64,000 nucleotides of DNA from Candidatus Adlerbacteria bacterium (GTDB lineage: Bacteria; Patescibacteriota; Minisyncoccia; Phycocordibacterales; SBAW01), in assembly GCA_963749085.1 (NCBI GenBank), contig CAVVLG010000003.1, forward strand, positions 219,380 to 283,379. Reading direction: 5' to 3'. The notes under the pieces are model-generated. The model was not told the origin of the DNA. It saw nothing but the letters and a program-made list of their open reading frames with translations, and searched no databases. A program made the position numbers and the translations under genes. The number at the start of each line of letters is the position of its first letter. Positions within the stretch are counted from its first letter, which is position 1. Below, piece after piece: positions 6,740 to 64,000 of the stretch.

Positions 6740-8341
6740 TTATTGGGAGTATACCCATTCACCCCGCTGACAGTGGAGCGCTGTTGTGCTCCCATTATCC
6801 ACAAAGTTAAGAAAACCACCGTTTGATGTAGTAGCGCCATTGCCCTGAACAACGACCCCAAATGGTAAGGTTGGCGTGGCACAACTCCCACTCCCCGTGG
6901 TAGTGGCCGAGGATGGCCAGGTGGACTGCATCGGCACTGTCATTGAAGATACCCATGACGGCATTCCTGACGGCATTCCTGACGGCATTCCTGACGGCAT
7001 TCCTGACGGCATTCCTGACGGCATTCCTGACGGCATTCCTGACGGCATTCCTGACGGCATTCCTGACGGCATTCCTGACGGCATTCCTGACGGCATTCCT
7101 GACGGCATTCCTGACGCAGGAATAGGAGTGGAAACGGTTGAAGATGCCATCTTCCACGTGCCAGCATTGCAGACAGGAGTCGGCCAGTTCGTACTCTGGG
7201 TTGTCGAGCCGTTGGTAAAGTACGGCTGGAAAGATACGCTTCCACCATTTGGTATCTGGATATTGCCCCAAGGCGTCGTGCACATATCACTCGAAGAGGG
7301 GATACTAGCGCCAGTGAACCACTGAGAAAACGAGTGACGTGTTCTGGGTCCGAAGACACCCAGACCGGTCGTGGTGGCGCTTCCACCAGAGACAATACCG
7401 TTCGCTATTTGCCAGCGGCCCACCGCAGCCGCAGTAAGCGGGCCAAAATAGCCGGTCACCAATCCCTGGGGGTATATGTTTGTGTCTTGGGAAAGCGCCT
7501 CTTGCAGACACGACACATCTGGACCAGTCGAACCTATCGACAACGAAGTCGTGAAGTCACAGGAGATAGTGGAAGTGACGGTGCTGGTAGTTATCGGAAC
7601 AGTAGTTATACCCGTCGCATTGATCGTAAGTGTCTCAGAGCCAGAGACACCACTACCGTCATTGGCGGTTGCGGTGATAGTGACCTGGCCTGCCGCAACG
7701 CCGGAAACCAGGCCATTGCTGTCGACGGTCGCCACAGAGGTGCTGCTCGAGCTCCACGTCACGGTATTGTTTGTGGCATCGTCAGGCAAAACAGTTGCTG
7801 TGAACTGATCGGTGTCGCCAACAGTAAGGGTGCCGCTGTCGGCAGCGGTGACGGTGATGCTGGTGACCGCAATGTCGGGCGCCGCAATGATGGTGGAACC
7901 GGTGGTGGAGGGCGGCTCTACGACGATGATGCCGGAGCATGAGGCAGAGCCAGCGGAATTGGTGACGCTCAGATTAACGGTGACGGTCTGGTTAGTGCTA
8001 TCGGTGTTTGTAAACGTGCCGGTGGTAGCAGTGCCAGAGGAGGAGGGGGTGAAGCTGGAGTCGTCTGGGCCTGAGCTTTCGCTCACGCCCGAAGGCAGCG
8101 TGTAGGTAAGCGCGGCGCTGGTTGGAGCATTCGTGGTGGTATAGGTGACGGTGGCCGAGGAGCCACTGGTAGTTGGCGAAGAAATGGAGGGGATGGAACA
8201 AGACGGAGAAGAAGGGGAAGTATAGTTAACCGACTGTGCTTGTACGAGTAGGGGAGCAAAACCGCACAAAAGAACGAGCACACCAATAATACTAAAGGCG
8301 ATCGAAAAATTAGTTTTCTTCATGATTTTAGTATAAAACAT
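6740..8341 (-). CDS. Secreted surface protein with Big_2 (bacterial Ig-like) domain, peptidoglycan-binding-like domain and (SGMP)14 tandem repeat
   Basis: A signal peptide [31 protein letters not shown] is present. The Big_2-like segment is [34 protein letters not shown]. The PG_binding_1-like segment is [21 protein letters not shown] 12-bp x13 DNA repeat encodes SGMP repeats. Confidence 0.7.
6957..7112. repeat. Perfect tandem repeat of the 12-bp unit GACGGCATTCCT, 13 copies, in-frame inside the CDS 6740-8341
   Basis: Read directly in the sequence. No mismatches between copies. Confidence 0.95.
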
Positions 8342-50745: not shown

Positions 50746-50818
50746 CCGCCCATAGCTCAGTTGGTAGAGCGGCTCCCTTTTAAGGAGAAGGTCGTAGGTT
50801 CGAATCCTACTGGGCGGA
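50746..50818 (+). tRNA. tRNA-Lys (anticodon TTT); C1:G72 acceptor end; CCA not encoded
   Basis: The sequence CCGCCCATAGCTCAGTTGGTAGAGCGGCTCC-CTTTTAA-GGAGAAGGTCGTAGGTTCGAATCCTACTGGGCGGA forms a cloverleaf. Confidence 0.75.
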
Positions 50819-50873
50819 CAGGTCAATAAAGCCTTATTTTGCAAGGTATTTTAATGATGACAATTCAGAAGCC

Positions 50874-50909
50874 TTGACTCCTTGACAAAACAATGTTTTG
50901 GGTATACGA
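50874..50909 (+). promoter_or_regulatory. Sigma70-like promoter (TTGACA-17 nt-TATACGAT)
   Basis: TTGACAaaacaatgttttgggTATACGAT lies upstream of the ORF at 50969. Confidence 0.4.
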
Positions 50910-50968
50910 TAGCAGACAAGTGAGTCCTTTGATTTGGCCATTCGGCCACAACGCCTGAGGAGGGCAAC

Positions 50969-51208
50969 ATGGAACGCGAGATGATAAAGATTCTTCTCTT
51001 CCTGCTGTGGGTTTCCACCATCGGCGACCTGCTTTTCACTTCTGCCTTCTCGTCTGACGAATTGACTATTTTCGTCAAACTCCATCCGCTTTTCGCAGGC
51101 GAAGGCCTCGTCTTCACAACCTTCTCCACGTTTGCGACCGTCGTGATGACGCTCAGAGTTATTCTGGACTTCACTCGCGGCAAAACGAACGAGATAGCGA
51201 ATGGCTGA
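50969..51208 (+). CDS. Hypothetical small membrane protein (79 aa)
   Basis: A GGAGG Shine-Dalgarno lies 7 nt upstream. The hydrophobic segment is ILLFLLWVSTIGDLLFTSAF. Confidence 0.4.
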   Translation: MEREMIKILLFLLWVSTIGDLLFTSAFSSDELTIFVKLHPLFAGEGLVFTTFSTFATVVMTLRVILDFTRGKTNEIANG

Positions 51209-51423
51209 CGCGCAAGCGCGTCCCGACGGCACGACGGTATCGTGCCACTCTATTGAGCCCACAACTTCGGTTGCGGTCTCATCGAGAAAGTTCACTAAAA
51301 GTTCTTCATAAATCTTAGGACTAAAGTCAGGTCGCGGTAACAACTTTGGTTGGCAAACTATCAAGTGAATGTCTATCCAAGAGAGGTATTACTATCCCGC
51401 AATACCAACCAAAGGAGAAAGCC

Positions 51424-51837
51424 ATGACCTGGCTCAGCGACCAACGCAACATGCAACCCGTTGTAGAAAGCGATTCATGGAGCAGAGCGGAGCAATTCGC
51501 GCTGGACTATGGATTTGCTGGCTGCATCGTCTCCTCCGCCTATGATGAGGTAGATACTCATCACAGCGGTATGCCTGGTGAATATCTCGGCTACGCCGAG
51601 CGATTCATTAAGAGCATAGGAGGAATGGTCATCGACGTTAAAGAACGTAATGACCGCATGTTGCCCTACTTGGTGGAGGAACTGGTTCGCCGGTCCTACC
51701 ATGCTTCACAAACCTGCTACAACCCCGCCATAAAAGGGCGGTGGGTGACGGGTACCGATATCTTTCGTATCTCTCGACTCATCCTCGAGGGTTTCCGAAA
51801 GTACGGTTTGAAGCTGGAGGATTTGCACACAAGCTAA
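51424..51837 (+). CDS. Hypothetical protein (137 aa)
   Basis: An AAGGAG Shine-Dalgarno lies upstream of the MTWLSD start. No recognisable domain. Confidence 0.4.
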   Translation: MTWLSDQRNMQPVVESDSWSRAEQFALDYGFAGCIVSSAYDEVDTHHSGMPGEYLGYAERFIKSIGGMVIDVKERNDRMLPYLVEELVRRSYHASQTCYNPAIKGRWVTGTDIFRISRLILEGFRKYGLKLEDLHTS

Positions 51838-52218
51838 TCCCCACCAAAAGAAGCCACGGATTCAACCCCGTGGCTTTCGATTTATGGCCTCCGACAAAGG
51901 CGAGACAACTTATCTCATGCCTCAATCAGAAGTACCTCTCTCCTCCCAAGTATTTTGAGTACGATTTAGCACCTTAATTCATTTGCCAACTCTTTACTAC
52001 AGCGACGAAAGACGGGGTCGGTGATAACATCAAAGTGGTTCTGACTTCGTCCATTAGGGCGGACATACCTATAAAGCCTTATTTTGCAATGCCGTTTTGG
52101 GCATTCCAACAGGACTAGATTTGCTCGAAAATCTTCATTTTTATATCAGGTTCATCCTTCTATCATCCAAAGCAGAAGTACGCGTAACTGGGCGTATTAT
52201 TTGTTTAATAAAAACGTT

Positions 52219-52443
52219 ATGAAGGTACTTCTATCATGCACCGAGTGCAATTATGAAGAGTGGAGTTCCTCTGAAAAAGAGCTGATGAATAAGATTATCG
52301 TGTGGAATCACGTTAAAAGGGAGCATCCGGCCACCGCCGAGCATATTATGCGCGTGTACCAACACGTGCCAATTTCGCTCTTTCATATACACACTTCACG
52401 TGCCGATGAACGAACTCGAAGATTTGTGCCCACGTTCGTTTAA
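52219..52443 (+). CDS. Hypothetical small protein (74 aa), DUF1059-like metal-binding pattern
   Basis: The MKVLLSCTECNYEE...H...H pattern is present. The assignment is weak. Confidence 0.3.
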   Translation: MKVLLSCTECNYEEWSSSEKELMNKIIVWNHVKREHPATAEHIMRVYQHVPISLFHIHTSRADERTRRFVPTFV

Positions 52444-55652: not shown

Positions 55653-55727
55653 TGGTGCTTCCGGCAGGAATCGAACCTGCATCTCCTCCTTCGGAGGGAG
55701 GTGTTCTATCCATTGGACTACGGAAGC
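55653..55727 (-). tRNA. tRNA-Arg (anticodon CCG); CCA encoded
   Basis: The reverse complement reads GCTTCCGTAGTCCAATGGATAGAACACCTCC-CTCCGAA-GGAGGAGATGCAGGTTCGATTCCTGCCGGAAGCACCA. Confidence 0.75.
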
Positions 55728-56289: not shown

Positions 56290-57528
56290 TTACTGCACCA
56301 CTTGCCCCTCAAGGTATTGATGGTTTTTATCCTGAGCATCGAAGGTGCAGCTTGAATCGTTGGCACATTGGCTTGGCACGGGGACAAATGTGGCGACATC
56401 GGCTCCAGGTATGACTTGTCCATCGTAATAGGCCGAATTTTTATCATGAGCATAGCCCACCACAAATCGATAGCCAGCGCCTAGCTCAGGACTATTCCAG
56501 AAAATAGGGTAGTAGGCCTCGAACGAGGTAAGATCTGCGGCAATAGGCTCTATACCGCCGGATTCACCATTTACATAACCATAATAAATGTGGTTGACGT
56601 CTTTATAATAGACAAAATTTATGGCTTCAAATGTTTTAGGATCGACCCCTTGAATTATAGTCATGGGGCTACCACCTAAATCACCCCCATACCAAACGTG
56701 TGTGCTGTCTCTAGCAACATCTGTTTGGGCATCGTAACTAAAGGTTGCAGGATCTGCGCCTGGTAATACGGAAAAGTTATCTATAACTTGATAGCCATAA
56801 GTGTAGATGTGATTTTTATCTTTTGCCAGGCCGGAATCAGGAATAACCGCAAAAGTATTGGGATCCGCGCCCGTGACTAGCTTATCCGCCAAAAACACAT
56901 GCGTTGCATCTTTAGCGAAAGGATAGATTGTCGCATCTGTCGTAAAAGTATTGGGATCCACGCCTGCTAGGATTCCTCCCCCACCAGCAGGGCCTGCACC
57001 GCCAAAGTATGAATAAGCGTTCGATTTGTCTTTTCCGTAACAATATCCGTAATCATCCGATTGGGGATTCAAAACGTCGAGAGAAACAAAGCTCGAAACA
57101 TCTGCGCCAATGCTTTCTGCGCTGCCGTCTCCGAGGTTATAATAGACATTGTTTTTGTCCTTAGAAAAACAATAACCTACCGATTCGGAGCTAGTCGCAA
57201 ATATTTCATATGTCGAAGGATCGACCGTCAGCGGATTGAATTCTCCATCCACGAAAGTCGTTGAGGTGCCTATATCAACATGGATCCACTGCTGCGAAAC
57301 ATTTTGAGCTGGGATGGCGGAAGTATTCTGAGTTGTGGTCGACGCCGTAGACGATTCGCCCGTCGTGCTTGGCATTTGATTTGTGTCGACACTTCGAATC
57401 AGTAAGGCCCAGCCTCCGGCTGCACATACAAGCAACACTGCTAAAACTGCTCCAAGTATCCACCACACTTTTTTACTTGACGGCAGTGGTTGAACCGGAG
57501 GGATTGGTTGCTCAGATGAAGGAGGCAT
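56290..57528 (-). CDS. Secreted DKNYY-repeat family protein
   Basis: An N-terminal TM/signal segment is present. Repeated DKNNVYY, DKSNAYSYF, DKNHIYTYG, DVNHIYYGY, DKNSAYYDG and DKNHQY motifs are present. Confidence 0.65.
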   Translation of the reverse strand: MPPSSEQPIPPVQPLPSSKKVWWILGAVLAVLLVCAAGGWALLIRSVDTNQMPSTTGESSTASTTTQNTSAIPAQNVSQQWIHVDIGTSTTFVDGEFNPLTVDPSTYEIFATSSESVGYCFSKDKNNVYYNLGDGSAESIGADVSSFVSLDVLNPQSDDYGYCYGKDKSNAYSYFGGAGPAGGGGILAGVDPNTFTTDATIYPFAKDATHVFLADKLVTGADPNTFAVIPDSGLAKDKNHIYTYGYQVIDNFSVLPGADPATFSYDAQTDVARDSTHVWYGGDLGGSPMTIIQGVDPKTFEAINFVYYKDVNHIYYGYVNGESGGIEPIAADLTSFEAYYPIFWNSPELGAGYRFVVGYAHDKNSAYYDGQVIPGADVATFVPVPSQCANDSSCTFDAQDKNHQYLEGQVVQ

Positions 57529-57668
57529 AGATGCCTAAAGTGTAGCAGTTTCAAGGCATTTCTGAACTCGGTTACCAACAGCTTACCAACTCGACCCTCC
57601 TGGACACCCACCCCCCTTGCGTCATCCATATACCTGTCGAATTAACAGGGCTTTAACTAGAACCAGTC

Positions 57669-58133
57669 TCAAAAATAATGTTTGAGTAATAGCATGATGC
57701 ACGCGAGCTTCACGAAGGCGGCAAAGTTCTGCAGTTTGTATTCGTAGCGAGTCACGAGCTTTCTCCAGTTGTGCATCCACGCGAACAGCCGCTCAATCTT
57801 CCACCGGCGCTTGTAGGAGCGCAGCGCCCTGCCGTCCTGTGTTGCTCTGCGCACCCGGCCTCTGCGATGCGGTGAAATGAGTTTGATGCGGTATTTGTTC
57901 AGGAGCGTTCCATCCAGCGGATCGGAATCATATGCTCGGTCAGCCGTGAGGCGAAGCGGATTCTGTCGGGTAAATCGCCGGGCAAGCGTGTCTTCAACCA
58001 ACCGGACTTCGCTCGGAGAAGCAGAGGCCACATAGACGGCGACTGGAAGAGAGCCTTCGTCCGCAATCGCCATGATCTTGGTGCCTTTCCCACGCTTCGT
58101 GGGTCCCACGCCAAGACCCCCTTTTTTGCCCCC
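57669..58133 (-). CDS. IS5-family transposase OrfB (DDE domain), expressed by a -1 frameshift from OrfA
   Basis: The DDE region is TADRAYDS...RWKIERLFAWMHNWRKL. The frame is open upstream through the A AAA AAG slippery site at + coordinates 58122-58128. Confidence 0.7.
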   Translation of the reverse strand, partial: GGKKGGLGVGPTKRGKGTKIMAIADEGSLPVAVYVASASPSEVRLVEDTLARRFTRQNPLRLTADRAYDSDPLDGTLLNKYRIKLISPHRRGRVRRATQDGRALRSYKRRWKIERLFAWMHNWRKLVTRYEYKLQNFAAFVKLACIMLLLKHYF

Positions 58134-58441
58134 GCGAAGGTGGCATCGAGAAAGCAGCTCCTGAGCTTGATGCGCCCCCGGTATTCCATGTCCATGGCCA
58201 GGGCTTCGACGATGCGGTCAAAGGCGCCGCTCTCCACCCACTGCTGGAACCTGCGATGGCAGGTCTGGTAGGGCGGGTAGTCTTTCGGCAGGTGCTTCCA
58301 CTGGGCGCCGGTCTTCAGTGCCCAGAGGATACCTTCCAGTATCTTGCGGTCGTCCTGCCGGGGACGGCCGCGGGTTTCCAAACGCTTGAGGGGTGTGACA
58401 AACGGAGCGATGACGCTCCACTGCTCGTTGGTGAGAGGCAT
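57899..58441 (-). CDS. IS5-family transposase OrfA (N-terminal DNA-binding part)
   Basis: The segments WSVIAPFV...GRPRQDDRKILEGILWALKTGAQWKHLP form an IS5/IS4 transposase N-domain. Confidence 0.75.
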   Translation of the reverse strand: MPLTNEQWSVIAPFVTPLKRLETRGRPRQDDRKILEGILWALKTGAQWKHLPKDYPPYQTCHRRFQQWVESGAFDRIVEALAMDMEYRGRIKLRSCFLDATFAGAKKGVLAWDPRSVGKAPRSWRLRTKALFQSPSMWPLLLRAKSGWLKTRLPGDLPDRIRFASRLTEHMIPIRWMERS

Positions 58442-58519
58442 GGGCAGGCAAATTACGGGTAACGCCCTGTGCCTTTAGTCTACAACGGTATTTTTGAGAT
58501 TGGTTCTAGGGTCAAATAT

Positions 58520-59851
58520 ATGGAAGCATCAATAGCAGACGGTTTAGAGCGGATGGGCGTAGCCGTTCCCCAAGAAAAATTAGCGGTGCAAATTAAATAT
58601 TGTCTCTATGCTCGCAAGAGTACCGAGGACGATGAGCATCAAGCACTCTCCATTGATAGCCAGATAAAGGAGATGGGCAGTCTGGCAATACGGGAGAAAT
58701 TAGAAGTAGTCGAAGTGCGCTCGGAGAAACATTCAGCAAAAGCCGCGGGCCAACGACCAGTATTCCAGCAGCTGCTCGCCGATGTACGCGAGGGAAAATT
58801 CAACGGCATCCTTACTTGGGCACCAGATCGTCTGAGTAGAAATGGCGGCGATCTCGGCGTACTGGTGGACTTGATGGATCAAAAATCACTGGTCGAGATA
58901 CGCACGTACACGCAGAAATTTACCAACAACCCGAACGAGAAGTTTCTGCTGATGATACTCGGTTCGCAAGCCAAGCTCGAAAATGACAACAAGAGCCTCA
59001 ACGTCAAGCGCGGATTGAAGGCGCGTGCAGAGATGGGCCTTTGGCCCGGCATTGCGCCGACTGGATACACCAACGACAAACGGTCTGACCACAAGTGCGA
59101 GATTCTAGTCGATCCAATACGTTCTTTGGTGGTTAAGCAAATATTCGAGAAAGTTGGGCGCGACAGAAGGAGCGGCCGGAAAGTATACGCGTGGTTGAAA
59201 TATGACATCAGATTTACGCACCGCTCCGGCAAACCGCTAAGTCTTAGCAATGTCTACAATGTGCTCCGGAACCCCTTCTATTGTGGCATGTTCGAGTTTC
59301 CGCGCGGCTCGGGACAGTGGTACACCGGCAAGCACACACCGCTCATCACCAAAGAGCTGTTTCAACTGGCGCAGGAGAAAATTGCTGAGGACAATCGCCC
59401 GAAAAAGAAATTCCAGGATTTTACCTTCACCAAATTGATGATCTGTGGATACTGTGGCTCAGGCGTCACGGCACAAGAAAAATCAAAAGCGCTTAAAGAC
59501 GGCAGCACAAATTGGTACATCTACTACAGCTGCGACAAATTCAAAGATCATCACTGCAAGAATCCCTATATTCGAGAGGACAATCTCACCACGCTACTGT
59601 TGGAGATAATAGAAACGGTAAGCATAGATGAAATTGGTGCGCGGCATCTCATCGAGCGCGAAGTGAACCGCTACAACAAACTCCGCGCTACGATGGGTCA
59701 CTCCGACAAAGACAAAGCCAAGGACATGGATATCCGTAAATATGCCAAATATCTATTGCAAGAAGGCACGCCGATGGAGAAGCGCGAACTGCTGCAGCAC
59801 CTTCGCAACCGGATCGTGATGAGAGACAAGAAAATATTTCTCGAGAACTAA
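58520..59851 (+). CDS. Large serine recombinase (resolvase/invertase N-domain + recombinase domain + zinc ribbon)
   Basis: The segment [19 protein letters not shown] carries the catalytic Ser region. The recombinase domain includes [11 protein letters not shown]. The zinc ribbon is CGYCGSGV...[12 protein letters not shown]. The ORF opens at 58469 inside the IS right end. Confidence 0.8.
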
Positions 59852-59857
59852 CACGTG

Positions 59858-59890
59858 AAAACGCCGAGCAATTTGCTCGGCGTTTTCGCT
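59858..59890 (+). terminator. Rho-independent terminator after the recombinase
   Basis: A CGCCGAGCA-attt-TGCTCGGCG stem is followed by TTTTCGCT. Confidence 0.6.
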
Positions 59891-60131
59891 CATCGAACCC
59901 TCTCGGTTGCGAACCGGTCTCGACGCATTTCGAGGCCTCATGGACGCATCGATGGGCCGCTGACTGCTGTGCCCCTGTTCGGAACCGACCCTGTGTGGTT
60001 GAGGCCCCACAAGCGTTTTCCGGAGGACTTCAGTGTACCAGAGCTGACCCTGTTCGGTAGGGGTCTCCAAAAGCCAATAAGACCGTTTGCGACTCCCAAA
60101 GGGCGTTTTCGACGCGTCGCAAACGCCCCCG

Positions 60132-60491
60132 CTATCGCACGCTGATACCGTGTTTCTTTTTGGGCCTCAGCTCTTTGAGCGCTAACCCGACCTTCGTCGG
60201 ATCGTTGAGGAGATAATATTTGTCCTTACTCTTGCCCGGCACTATCATTTTCCGCAGTACGCCGTAGCTGACCCCGAGGCGAAGATTTGAGGGGAGCTTG
60301 GCCTCTTTTGATTTCAACGCTTTGTATACGCGGTATCCCGCAAAGCCACTCCCGTCCGATTGCCCGTGCAGTTCGTAGCACACTTCGAGTATCGCCAGCC
60401 ATTCGGGGTACTCAAGCACCAGATGCTTGGTGCGGTGATAGATAGTCGCCTGTACTGGATGGGTCAGAATGGGTTTTTTAGCCATACTCAT
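60132..60491 (-). CDS. Hypothetical protein (119 aa) in mobile element
   Basis: ORF divergent from the methyltransferase genes. No recognisable domain. Confidence 0.4.
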   Translation of the reverse strand: MSMAKKPILTHPVQATIYHRTKHLVLEYPEWLAILEVCYELHGQSDGSGFAGYRVYKALKSKEAKLPSNLRLGVSYGVLRKMIVPGKSKDKYYLLNDPTKVGLALKELRPKKKHGISVR

Positions 60492-60704
60492 AGGATATCA
60501 TACGACCCCATAAAGAAGCATAGCAAATTGAGCAGGAGGCAGCACTAGTAGATTGCGGGGTCAGAAAATCCTTTAATCGAGCCATTAAATGAGGCTCGTT
60601 TTCGGTACGCGCGAAGCCTGCAAACGAAAATCAATTCCACTACTCAAGTCAGTACACTGAAATTAGAAGGTCAAAAAATTATTAATCACTTATACCCCTT
60701 ATAT

Positions 60705-61988
60705 ATGTCAAAGAAACAACCGCTCCAGTGGAGCACTGTGCAGCGCCGCATCGACGACCTTGTTCCCTTCAAAGGGAACCCACGCCAGCTCGACGAGCGG
60801 CAGGCCGAAGCTCTTAAAAAGAGCCTCACCCGTTTTGGCCTCGCAGAAATTCCGGCCGTGGATCAGGATAATACGATTTTGGCCGGGCACGCGAGACTCA
60901 AGACTCTTCAACTGTTGGGCAAGGGCCAAGAGATCGTCGACGTCAGGGTTCCATCAAGGCCCCTTACTACAAAAGAGCGCGAGGCATACCTGCTCACCTC
61001 CAATGCCGTGACCGGCGGCTGGGACTATGACCTCTTGCGCGGCTTCAATACCGACCTCTTGCTCGACATTGGGTTCAGCGACGAGGCGCTGGCAAATATC
61101 TTTGATGACAGTCTCGAAGTGCTCAATGATGGCTTCGACGAAAAAGAAGAGATCAAACGCGCGAAGAACACCACGATTAAACTCGGTGACCACTTCCTAC
61201 TCGGACGCCATCACCTGTTGTGTGCCGACGCGCTCGACCCGAAAACCGCGCAGACACTCATGGGTTCGGTTCGTGCCGATATGGTCAATGACGATTTGCC
61301 ATATAACATCGGACTCTCATATGACACCGGTGTTGGTGGGCGTGGGCGTTACGGCGGCACGACCAATGACAACAAGTCAGAGGCTGAGTACCGGCAGTTC
61401 GTGAAAACCGTAATGCAGAACGCCATCGCCGTTTCTAAGAAGGACTGCCATTACTTTTGGTGGTGTGACGAACGTTACGTTTTTCTTTTCCAGGAACTGT
61501 ATCGCGAGCTCGGCATCGACTCCAAGCGGCTCTGCATTTGGTTGAAGGACAACGCTTCGCCGGTACCACAAAACGCGTTCAATAAAATTATTGAATGCAT
61601 CCCGTATGGGGTTCGCGGAAAACCGTTTTTGAATAACCGCGTGCGCAACCTAAACGAGATCATCAATAAGGAACTTTCGACAGGGGGCCGGTTGCCGGAA
61701 GAATTCCTCGACATGCTGTGCGTGTGGCTGGCGAAGCGCCTGCCTAGCGGCGAGCTCCAGCACCCAACACAAAAAAATCCTACGGTCCATGAAAAATGTT
61801 TGCGTCGGTGTAGTCGGCCGGGTGATGCGGTGTTGGACTTGACGTGTGGCAGTGGCAGCCTTCTTTCAGCTTGCCACCAGCTAGGCCGCACGGCGTACTG
61901 CGCCGACTACGAGCCGGTGTTTGTTCAGGTCGTCATTAATAGATTCAAAAAATTGGCACCCCATGAAAAAATTACAAAACTCAATTAA
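60705..61988 (+). CDS. ParB-like nuclease domain fused to a beta-class N6-adenine/N4-cytosine DNA methyltransferase
   Basis: The N-terminal ParB/Srx segment is VPFKGNPRQLDERQAEALKKSLTRFGLAEIPAV. Motif IV is NDDLPYN. The C-terminal motif I is VLDLTCGSGS. Confidence 0.7.
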   Translation: MSKKQPLQWSTVQRRIDDLVPFKGNPRQLDERQAEALKKSLTRFGLAEIPAVDQDNTILAGHARLKTLQLLGKGQEIVDVRVPSRPLTTKEREAYLLTSNAVTGGWDYDLLRGFNTDLLLDIGFSDEALANIFDDSLEVLNDGFDEKEEIKRAKNTTIKLGDHFLLGRHHLLCADALDPKTAQTLMGSVRADMVNDDLPYNIGLSYDTGVGGRGRYGGTTNDNKSEAEYRQFVKTVMQNAIAVSKKDCHYFWWCDERYVFLFQELYRELGIDSKRLCIWLKDNASPVPQNAFNKIIECIPYGVRGKPFLNNRVRNLNEIINKELSTGGRLPEEFLDMLCVWLAKRLPSGELQHPTQKNPTVHEKCLRRCSRPGDAVLDLTCGSGSLLSACHQLGRTAYCADYEPVFVQVVINRFKKLAPHEKITKLN

Positions 61989-62730
61989 ATACGGAGACGT
62001 CTTCCGTCTGGGCGAACATATTCTCGCCTACGGCGATTGTCGCGATGCGAAACTCATTGCCAAGGCGATCGGCGCGCGCAAAGTAAAAACGGTCATTTGT
62101 GATGTTCCATATGGCATCGACCTGACCGCTTCCAAGGAAAACTTCAAGCCCCTCCTCAAAAACAAAAATATTGTGGGCGATCACGCGCAGAGCGACGCGG
62201 AGTATGCGACATTCACGCGCGAGTGGATCGAAGCATTGAAGCCACACCTCGCAGCAAAGAACTCCTTCTATATCTTCAACTCTGACCGCATGATCTTTGC
62301 GCTCCGGCAGGGCATGTTCGAGGCTGGATTGAAATTCAGCCAACTATTGGTCTGGGTCAAGACAAGCAGCGTGGTCGGGCGGCTCGACTACGCTCCCATG
62401 CACGAACTCATCGCGGTTGGTTGGCACGGCACGCACGAATTCCTCAAGCCCAAAGATCGCAGCGTCCTCATATATCCCAAACCTAAGCGCAGTCCTCGGC
62501 ATCCGTCGACGAAGCCGGTCGGGTTAATACGTCGCCTGGTGCTCAACACCACGAAGGTGGGCGATGTTGTGTTTGATGGATTCCTTGGTAGTGGTACTGC
62601 GCTTTGGGCTTGCCACCAGACAGGACGCGTCTGCATCGGGGTTGAAATCGATGGGGAGTATGTAGAGCAGGTCATCGAGTCATATTACAAATTAACTGGC
62701 ATTAAAGCCCAAAAAATATATGGAGCGTAA
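61963..62730 (+). CDS. DNA methyltransferase (N6-adenine/N4-cytosine, beta class)
   Basis: Motif IV is ICDVPYG. Motif I is VVFDGFLGSGTALWAC. Confidence 0.7.
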   Translation: MKKLQNSIKYGDVFRLGEHILAYGDCRDAKLIAKAIGARKVKTVICDVPYGIDLTASKENFKPLLKNKNIVGDHAQSDAEYATFTREWIEALKPHLAAKNSFYIFNSDRMIFALRQGMFEAGLKFSQLLVWVKTSSVVGRLDYAPMHELIAVGWHGTHEFLKPKDRSVLIYPKPKRSPRHPSTKPVGLIRRLVLNTTKVGDVVFDGFLGSGTALWACHQTGRVCIGVEIDGEYVEQVIESYYKLTGIKAQKIYGA

Positions 62731-63154
62731 AGAAGATAAGACCAAGCGCCAGATGCGCGAGAGGTCCAAAGAAATGATGATTGAGCAGTTAAAGCGTCTG
62801 CCTATTATTCAGTTAGCGGCGGAGAAAGTAAACATCGACCGTTCGACCCACTTCCGTTGGTGCAAGGAAGACGCTGATTACGCTCGCAGGAGCGAAGATG
62901 CAATTCTCGAAGGCGTCGGCTTCATCAACGACGGGGCCGAGGCGCAGCTTATGGCCGCCATCCGTGACCGTGATATGCGGGCGATTTCATTGTGGCTGCG
63001 CGCCAATCATCCGCGCTACAAGACCAAAGTCGAGGTATCTGGCAGCGTCACCATGAAAAAAGAGATGACGCCGGAGCAACAGGCGGATGCGGCCGAAGCG
63101 CTGGAACACTCGGCACAGCTCAGGGCCGCACTTAAAAAACATGAACCCGAGTAA
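62720..63154 (+). CDS. Phage terminase small subunit-like protein
   Basis: The HTH-like N-terminus is LKRLPIIQLAAEKVNIDRSTHFRWCKEDADYA. It is immediately upstream of, and overlapping, the terminase large subunit ORF. Confidence 0.5.
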   Translation: MERKEDKTKRQMRERSKEMMIEQLKRLPIIQLAAEKVNIDRSTHFRWCKEDADYARRSEDAILEGVGFINDGAEAQLMAAIRDRDMRAISLWLRANHPRYKTKVEVSGSVTMKKEMTPEQQADAAEALEHSAQLRAALKKHEPE

Positions 63155-64000
63155 TCTCAACAAAGAATTTCTCAAGCGGGTCATCGGTGACCCTATGGTG
63201 CGTCAGACCGTGACGCGCGAGGACCTCCTATGGTTTTGGCACGTCTACGTGATACCCAATCTTCCGAAGTTCTACGGCGTCGCGCCGTTTCAGATTGAGA
63301 TAATGGACATACTGCAGAATGCGGCGAATAAGTTCTTCGTGCTCGAAGGATTTCGCGGATCCTCCAAAAGCTCAATCGCCAACCACGCCTTCACCGTATG
63401 GTCCATCGTCGGTAAACCACAGACCAAATTTATTATTATCATCGCCGGCACGGCTGAACTGGCGCGGCAGCACCTCAACAATATAAAGGCGCTCATGGCG
63501 AGCGAGCCTCTGCGCTCGGACATGGGTCCGTTTCAAATTCCCGAAGGCGAGTGGCGGGCCAACGCGATCGACATCCCAAAATACAACGCGCGAGTCATTT
63601 CCGTGTCGGTTGAGCAAAATGTCAGAGGGTTGTTGCATAACAACATCAGGCCGCAAATCGTGATCCTCGACGACCTCGAGAACATCAACACCGCGCTCTC
63701 GGAGGACGTGCGTCATCGTACGTACCAAACTTTCAACTCCGACATCAGGCCGGTCGGCGATCTCGACACTCGCTTTATCGTCATCGGAACCAGATTGTGG
63801 GAAGAAAGTTTGATCATGCGTTTTAAAAACGACATTGAGAACGGCAGGCGCAACGGCATCTTCCGCTCCTACCCCATCATCAACGAGCGGGATGAGCCTC
63901 TGTGGCCGGATAAATTTCCAACAAAGGAGGATGTTGAACAACTGCGCAAGGACATTGGCGACGAAGCCGCGTGGGCGCGGGAGTTTATGCTCCAGATTGT
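63141..64000 (+). CDS. Phage terminase large subunit, N-terminal ATPase domain (partial; runs off the window so it is absent from the ORF track)
   Basis: The frame is open from the ATG at 63141 to the window end. The Walker A-like segment is VLEGFRGSSKSS. The Walker B-like segment is IVILDDLEN. The antisense ORF 63372-63941 is probably a shadow. Confidence 0.55.
   Translation, partial: MNPSNLNKEFLKRVIGDPMVRQTVTREDLLWFWHVYVIPNLPKFYGVAPFQIEIMDILQNAANKFFVLEGFRGSSKSSIANHAFTVWSIVGKPQTKFIIIIAGTAELARQHLNNIKALMASEPLRSDMGPFQIPEGEWRANAIDIPKYNARVISVSVEQNVRGLLHNNIRPQIVILDDLENINTALSEDVRHRTYQTFNSDIRPVGDLDTRFIVIGTRLWEESLIMRFKNDIENGRRNGIFRSYPIINERDEPLWPDKFPTKEDVEQLRKDIGDEAAWAREFMLQI

Follow-up and report, generated by a model that had tools for sequence, protein, structure and literature searches.

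The window analyzed here, a stretch of 64,000 nucleotides from a Candidatus Adlerbacteria contig (CAVVLG010000003.1, positions 219,380 to 283,379), ends in six genes: a large serine recombinase (LSR), a small divergent open reading frame (ORF), a DNA methyltransferase (MTase) fused to a ParB-like domain (ParB-MTase), a second MTase, and the small and large subunits of a terminase (TerS and TerL). With moderate confidence, we read the region from 58.5 to 64 kb as the left portion of a mobile element integrated in the chromosome of a Paceibacterota-like member of Patescibacteria, an element that targets tRNA genes and is probably a helper-dependent satellite with a terminase of its own. An original prediction, made from the window sequence, took this region for the beginning of a prophage. 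All six genes occur where that prediction placed them, with domain matches that confirm their assignments, and the element is indeed phage-derived, integrated, and longer than the window, since the nuclease half of TerL and a set of cargo genes lie beyond position 64000. The word prophage is the part that fails. PHROG and Pfam scans found no portal, capsid, tail, or lysis gene in the 5.7 kb past the window, and a cassette of four to five genes recurs in at least 80 Patescibacteria loci, bounded by the LSR and a tRNA or housekeeping genes, without structural genes.

A recurrent cassette in Patescibacteria

Relatives of TerL were confirmed 546 times in a scan that took one genome from each GTDB species. 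The best 80 loci were kept with 10-kb flanks, and nearly all are from metagenome-assembled genomes of Patescibacteria. Six-frame ORFs from 86 related loci, searched with the window proteins, include a TerS in 85, an MTase in 80, and an LSR in 61. The genes follow a fixed order on one strand: ParB-MTase, an optional second MTase, TerS (directly upstream of TerL in those 85 loci), TerL, and LSR. The LSR is downstream of TerL and on the same strand in 54 of the 64 loci with sequence enough to judge, separated from TerL by less than 250 bp in 26 of the 54 and by 0.4 to 7.4 kb of other genes in the rest. Three neighborhoods read directly each show ParB-MTase, a protein of about 145 residues, and TerL, with restriction or Shedu genes upstream and no structural genes. 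Two of the three extend past TerL to an LSR and then to housekeeping genes, rpoD/dnaG or gltX; tsaD/aspS is a further example among the genes that flank relatives. Three loci (L020, L038, and L071) have an LSR of the canonical type upstream of the operon, on the opposite strand, where in L071 it faces a tRNA cluster, so the orientation of the cassette relative to its LSR is not fixed. The family as a whole is predicted to be a compact mobile element, common in Patescibacteria (bacteria of the candidate phyla radiation, or CPR), that has no capsid genes.

The setting of the LSR points to the route of integration. Twenty-five loci have a canonical LSR downstream and at least one tRNA gene beyond it; in all 25, the first tRNA is encoded on the other strand and turns its 3' end toward the LSR (binomial p = 6e-8). 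The two genes are within 2.5 kb of each other in 19 of these loci and within 300 bp in 6, and the tRNAs are specific for Gln (11 loci), Ser (9), Glu (3), Asn (1), and Trp (1). At L054, a 19-nt copy of the tRNA-Gln 3' end is found at the far end of a 17-kb island, while at L048 a 34-bp repeat running into the 3' end of tRNA-Ser bounds 9.5 kb. A 6.4-kb block is common to L065 and L069 (91% identity), whose flanks are unrelated; L020 and L069 have flanks that are 87% identical and cassettes that are only 65% identical and differently placed. The facing tRNA genes, the delimiting repeats, and the shared block in unrelated flanks therefore indicate a site-specific integrative element that targets tRNA genes. 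From its position, we infer that the LSR is the enzyme responsible for this integration.

Copies of the cassette appear to be maintained by selection. Between the 91%-identical copies in L065 and L069, dN/dS is 0.09 for the MTase, 0.055 for TerS, 0.032 for TerL, and 0.012 for the LSR, and the window TerL compared with that of L169 (82% identical) gives 0.04, at a dS near saturation. These values show strong purifying selection on the core genes and argue that they are functional rather than decaying. The closest relative of the window copy, L169/L170, is 82% identical in TerL, 46% in TerS, and about 40% in ParB-MTase; it has no second MTase and carries a homolog of a 315-residue window-element protein directly 3' of TerL. 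Modules of the cassette are swapped between elements, as in L048 and L053, where the TerLs are near-identical (pN 0.016) and the LSRs far apart (pN 0.305). Pairwise identities of TerL and TerS correlate with a Spearman coefficient of 0.49, and those of TerL and LSR only weakly, at 0.17, because divergence is near saturation and modules are swapped. Co-evolution of TerL with the LSR is not supported by that value.

Other genes recur around the cassette. All-against-all clustering finds an S24 LexA/CI-like repressor in 21 loci, mostly divergent from the operon, a small helix-turn-helix (HTH) protein in 17, and an OB-fold membrane protein in 15. Among 135 ORFs upstream of the MTase, Peptidase_S24 is found in 16, six of them with a LexA DNA-binding domain, and L171 has HTH_3 together with Peptidase_M78, an ImmR/ImmA-like pair. 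These repressors suggest a switch of the inducible type in many copies. Type IIG/ISP restriction enzymes, HamA, SAVED, and a reverse transcriptase are also encoded upstream. Cargo between TerL and LSR includes defense genes (type I restriction-modification, a PLD-helicase with an Eco57I-type MTase, KAP NTPase, DpnII with a Dam-type MTase, and bacterial HORMA) as well as heavy-metal P-type ATPase, nucleases, MarR/HTH regulators, transporters, and superinfection-exclusion (Sie)/Ltp lipoprotein-like proteins. Downstream of the LSR, accessory and housekeeping genes are mixed.

Terminase genes and their phage relatives

The window TerL begins at 63141 on the forward strand and runs on past 64000 to about 64883, encoding 580 residues in full. 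Its N-terminal ATPase part lies in the window and its C-terminal RNase-H-like nuclease half beyond it. The 286 residues in the window match phrog_38 at 2.8e-41, and the full-length protein, read from an identical contig, does so at 6.5e-70. Walker A residue K76, Walker B residues D177/D178, and nuclease residues D319/D454/D457 are invariant across 38 homologs, and E180 is nearly so. The TerL profile matches T7 gp19 and the 8dgc TerL in PDB, and PF17289 is on record for relatives. Its family matches and catalytic residues mark TerL as a genuine terminase, not an ATPase of another type. The original prediction had named two findings that would speak against it, a lack of phage structural genes downstream and homology of TerL to a non-phage ATPase family. 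The first is what we see, up to 69.7 kb, and it counts against a prophage; the second is not, and the terminase assignment stands.

TerL varies in form across the family. The TerLs of L007, L008, L013, L024, and L063 are 700 to 720 residues long, with an extra C-terminal region of about 200 residues, and long homologs P0015, P0017, and P0018 have no recorded Pfam family other than Terminase_6C. The window TerL has a shorter charged extension of about 100 residues, at about 480-580. Two full-length TerL paralogs stand in tandem between TerS and LSR in L032, L037, L047, L064, and L082, and in L033 TerL appears split.

TerS (62720 to 63154, forward strand) has an N-terminal HTH and overlaps both the second MTase and TerL. 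The window protein matches phrog_4044 at 3.8e-7; among family members tested, 21 of 21 match phrog_4044 and 17 of 21 match phrog_309. Its homologs lie next to TerL throughout the set of related loci, and the window TerS is assigned, by sequence, to a small-subunit family specific to these cassettes. A TerS profile compared with PDB sequences gave chance HTH matches only, and an AlphaFold2 (AF2) model from the single sequence was poor, with a predicted local distance difference test (pLDDT) score of about 51.

Few close TerL relatives occur in IMG/VR. Six phage contigs there (L091, L092, L094, L096, L097, and L098) have TerLs 29-33% identical to that of the window. Phage TerLs reach 46% identity with other cassette TerLs, L091 and L092 being at 43-46% with some. 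Median TerL identity is 49.5% for cassette-cassette pairs and 36.9% for cassette-phage pairs (maximum 46%). The two identity ranges overlap and do not establish the cassette TerLs as a monophyletic group separate from those of phages. The phages have a portal gene (phrog_2662, 1e-101 to 1e-108) right after TerL, and the contigs checked further add genes for a protease/scaffold protein (phrog_80) and the major capsid protein (phrog_10). In L091, L094, and L096, for example, ParB-MTase, a small protein, and TerL stand in the same order as in the cassette, and the MTase of L091 is 56% identical to the window ParB-MTase. These phages differ in that the small protein before TerL is outside the cassette TerS family and that no LSR is adjacent. 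Absence of the cassette TerS family from its nearest phages suggests that the cassette has a packaging specificity of its own. Drawn from the contrast with these portal-bearing contigs, the probable origin of the cassette is a phage packaging module that lost its capsid genes, has its own TerS lineage, and became linked to an LSR.

Searches for phage structural genes around the cassettes were negative throughout. All-against-all clustering revealed no conserved portal or capsid family near them. No head, tail, or lysis family is among the 25 commonest in the PHROG and Pfam lists for 91 cargo, 135 upstream, and 134 downstream ORFs. None of 1751 non-core ORFs of at least 100 residues in cassette loci matches the portal, protease, or major capsid protein of the related phages at 1e-5. 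Likewise, the conserved families near the cassette include no primase, helicase, or rep.

The window copy and its chromosomal setting

In the window, the LSR (58520 to 59851, forward strand) precedes the operon, so that the usual order is circularly permuted. Its reading frame is open from 58469, and the start is placed at a probable ATG at 58520 because an insertion sequence ends at 58509; the stop is at 59851. Its Resolvase (2.4e-24), Recombinase (1.3e-12), and Zn_ribbon_recom (8.3e-10) matches in Pfam are all above cut-off, it matches the phrog_95 integrase family at 1.6e-68, and it has 57% identity to the LSRs found after TerL in L002, L060, and L065. The insertion sequence, an IS5-family element of 853 bp (57657 to 58509, reverse strand) at the edge of the mobile element, has orfA/orfB frameshifted in two frames, with matches to DUF4096 (8.4e-28) and DDE_Tnp_1 (4.1e-15) in Pfam, and 26-nt terminal inverted repeats at 57657-57682 and 58484-58509. 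It is present as a single copy within the 64-kb window. The insertion point is a CTAG-like site, and 10 bp remain between it and the LSR start codon. The insertion parts the LSR from its native upstream region; the recombinase could be silenced or driven by it, and its expression in the window copy may have changed accordingly.

Directly 3' of the LSR stop codon is a perfect hairpin with a 15-bp stem (59857 to 59887, forward strand; the inverted repeat is 100% complementary), probably a terminator. An imperfect palindrome centered on ATCGAT (59938 to 59963) follows, 97 bp past the stop codon, and is the sole candidate recombination (att) site in the window. A public contig of 9763 bp from an independent assembly (L001, Logan ERR12036785) begins at window position 59948, the center of this palindrome, and its start there may reflect a mixed population or a recombination junction. 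Rfam at E<=5 gave no tRNA fragment beside the window LSR; the only tRNA found was tRNA-Arg at 55656-55727.

A divergent ORF of 119 residues (orf119; 60132 to 60491, reverse strand) has a promoter-like site at 60526-60497. It has no match in Pfam, PHROG, or PADLOC and no homolog in the 86 related loci, and its AF2 model from the single sequence was poor (pLDDT 51). By position, it could be a regulator. The ParB-MTase (60705 to 61988, forward strand) joins a ParB/Srx-like N-terminal domain to a beta-class N6A/N4C DNA methyltransferase. It matches N6_N4_Mtase (PF01555) at 1.4e-21 over residues 192-409, phrog_498 at 2.3e-75, and the ParB-like phrog_620 at 5.1e-22 over residues 10-149; the Pfam ParB_N model fails its threshold on this protein and is recorded for relatives. 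Motifs NPR, GxxR, DxPY, and GSGS are conserved across 79 relatives, and motif IV (DxPY) precedes motif I (GSG), the beta-class order. The second beta-class MTase (61963 to 62730, forward strand; PF01555 at 1.6e-29, phrog_498 at 3.8e-52) is optional in the family, carried by about half of relatives. Both MTases had been described as apparently orphan, and this is borne out, as PADLOC returns MTase models only in the window cassette and no restriction endonuclease. PADLOC gives no defense model for LSR, TerS, TerL, orf119, or the proteins downstream. Successive genes from ParB-MTase through TerL overlap by 11-26 nt and therefore form one operon, and all ORFs of the cassette in the window are intact.

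L001 matches the window at 100% identity from 59948 to 64000 and extends 5.7 kb further; through it, window numbering is carried on past 64000, and sequence was read to 69.7 kb. Beyond TerL the coding strand switches. Three small ORFs are followed by a 315-residue secreted protein (phrog_26645 at 1.3e-22, plus a weak superinfection-exclusion family match), a DUF3761 protein (8.7e-28), and proteins of 155 and 329 residues. Some prophage families are matched weakly by the small ORFs (DUF1660, 0.0097; phrog_15735, 1.7e-4). Two LOOT RNA motifs (Rfam RF03000; 66.0 and 66.5 bits, gathering score 46.4) occur on the reverse strand of L001 at 6839-6964 and 8024-8148, about 66.8 kb and 68.0 kb in window numbering, directly upstream of the genes for the 315-residue secreted protein and the 155-residue protein. 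L001 was considered as an excised circle and rejected, its ends sharing no overlap, terminal inverted repeat, or arm symmetry. A metagenome scan found no longer close relative of the window element.

The MurE of the window has its best named matches at 70-72% identity, which marks the host as Paceibacterota-like. Two relatives are syntenic with the window from 48 to 55.7 kb (polA, tRNA-Lys, spoU, murE, ruvA, rpsT, and tRNA-Arg). The synteny stops at tRNA-Arg(CCG), 55653-55727, and the genes that come next in both relatives (ruvX, rplS, one for a tRNA-binding protein, and others) do not occur anywhere up to 69.7 kb. The break at tRNA-Arg, with no return by 69.7 kb, means that the cassette lies within a variable island 14 kb or more in length. 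The element itself reaches at least about 66.7 kb. Between tRNA-Arg and the IS5-family element, the window encodes a 412-residue DKNYY-family protein with an N-terminal membrane anchor (56290-57528, reverse strand) that is not at the equivalent position in the two syntenic relatives. A second variable hotspot lies beside tRNA-Lys(TTT), at 50746-52400 in the window, 12952-18500 in L167, and 13294-19600 in L168. One relative has there a different serine recombinase of 516 residues with Fic, another has a Peptidase_S74 protein with Fic, and the window has small ORFs only.

A probable satellite and the alternatives to it

The life cycle proposed for a helper-dependent satellite of this kind would run as follows. 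Upon induction, the LSR would excise the element, and the MTases of the operon would methylate its DNA, which would then survive restriction in the next cell. TerS would recognize a packaging site on the element, and the element's own TerL would pump the element DNA into procapsids of a helper phage. Cargo such as restriction-modification systems, exclusion-like membrane proteins, and metal pumps would repay the host for carriage.

Several points weigh against such a satellite. No helper phage was identified, and none of the fetched loci is a circular or terminally repeated contig; no packaged copy was seen among them. The conserved core lacks a replication module, which leaves the source of a concatemeric packaging substrate unexplained. 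TerL normally must fit the portal of its own phage, and a free-standing TerL without capsid genes is unusual for a satellite. In the window copy, the 5.7 kb read past TerL reach no right boundary, the att site is at candidate level only, and the LSR reads toward a 280-bp spacer without tRNA instead of lying beside a tRNA 3' end. A structural gene present at a single locus could be hidden, because the family lists give only the 25 commonest families. Described satellites encode TerS and are presumed to borrow the TerL of the helper (PMC9618062).

Possible, if unlikely, is that MTase, TerS, and TerL make up a domesticated anti-phage system and that the LSR only moves the island. Such a module might capture the procapsids of an infecting phage and so interfere with packaging, or TerS and TerL might recognize, translocate, and cut unmethylated DNA while ParB-MTase marks the DNA of its own cell. 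Strict linkage of MTase and terminase in one overlapping operon without capsid genes is in keeping with defense, as are the strong purifying selection and a neighborhood rich in type I, IIG, and III restriction-modification, Shedu, Hachiman, CBASS, reverse transcriptases, and KAP NTPases. Compared with its closest relative, the window copy has also diverged much faster in the parts that would recognize DNA (46% identity in TerS and about 40% in the MTase) than in TerL (82%). The PADLOC results, however, include no defense model for TerS, TerL, or LSR, and a second MTase that comes and goes is a better fit to an anti-restriction accessory than to a matched modification subunit. Moreover, switches of the LexA/CI-like and ImmR/ImmA-like kinds suggest that the operon is kept repressed until induction, like the late genes of a mobile element, and the arrangement of ParB-MTase with TerL is inherited from real phages (L091, L094, and L096).

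A bolder form of this idea, which we hold to be rather improbable, makes the operon a capsid-independent machine for immunity or transfer, in which the terminase would be an ATP-driven, sequence-targeted translocase and nuclease acting on unmethylated foreign DNA, with ParB-MTase marking self. If it were true, a defense akin to restriction-modification would have arisen from a phage packaging motor and spread in Patescibacteria by means of a tRNA-targeting LSR.

Decay is an improbable explanation. It would make the cassette a prophage remnant without present function, its packaging and integrase genes left over after deletion of the structural module. The window copy is disturbed, with the IS5-family element 10 bp before the LSR, a non-canonical gene order, and no tRNA beside the LSR, and the apparently split TerL of L033 could be taken in the same sense. 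Yet the same gene set and order occur in dozens of deeply diverged genomes, dN/dS is 0.01-0.09, catalytic residues are invariant, and the window ORFs are intact; independent random loss would not repeatedly spare exactly MTase, TerS, TerL, and LSR. A complete prophage of unusual layout, with structural and lysis genes more than 6 kb downstream of TerL, is very improbable: the island has not ended by 69.7 kb, only 5.7 kb beyond the window was read, and weak prophage-family matches do follow TerL, but related true phages have the portal immediately after TerL, relatives visible on both sides are bounded by the LSR and tRNA or housekeeping genes within a few kb, and the genes after TerL are of cargo type and on the opposite strand, the 315-residue protein being kept beside TerL in the closest relative.

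The satellite reading gains context from known elements. The family resembles phage-inducible chromosomal islands (PICIs), virion-encapsidated integrative mobile elements (VEIMEs), and PICI-like elements (PLEs) in being small and integrated, with an integrase at one end, a repressor-type switch, and its own TerS, and in carrying defense or interference cargo without tail or lysis genes. The PICI-type set of features (integrase, repressor switch, own TerS, and no structural or lysis genes) is found across the family, with an integrase of the serine type; in the window copy no repressor was identified, and the PICI-type switch is seen in relatives. Serine recombinases are used by PLEs and by one VEIME module, according to PMC9618062. 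The element is unlike all three groups in its full TerS plus TerL, in having one or more ParB-MTases in its core, and in its Patescibacteria hosts, and no primase or replication module and no capsid-size-redirecting genes were found in it. Capsid-forming PICIs (cf-PICIs) are satellites that do encode both TerS and TerL, which gives them satellite-specific packaging. They also encode portal, protease, major capsid protein, and head-tail connectors, whereas none of these was found in the cassette loci.

Small or defective phage-like elements that are moved by an LSR and retain terminase genes include phiRv1 and phiRv2 of Mycobacterium tuberculosis and skin of Bacillus subtilis. Capsid and protease genes persist in the first two, as do many structural genes of the PBSX-like kind in skin. 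To our knowledge, none of the three has a core of ParB-MTase, TerS, TerL, and LSR, a tRNA target, or a conserved family that spans a phylum. Tycheposons integrate at tRNA genes and carry variable cargo, some of their families with serine recombinases, and the element is like them in its tRNA targeting and variable cargo. As far as we know, their definition combines a tyrosine or serine recombinase with genes for replication and does not include a terminase operon with MTases. The element is best described as a satellite-like integrative island that targets tRNA genes, set apart by a complete terminase that has no capsid to go with it and by how widely it occurs in Patescibacteria.

The genomes of Patescibacteria are tiny, and few prophages have been recognized in them. 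The portions of the open-access literature covered by our search hold no description of the cassette, and no phage satellite is described there for Patescibacteria. The family would also supply tRNA-targeting LSRs with natural att sites. It points either to the first satellite family of Patescibacteria, which would also be the first kind of satellite to bring its own TerL without a capsid, or to a packaging motor put to new use. Either outcome would show how defense genes and other cargo move among uncultured episymbionts.

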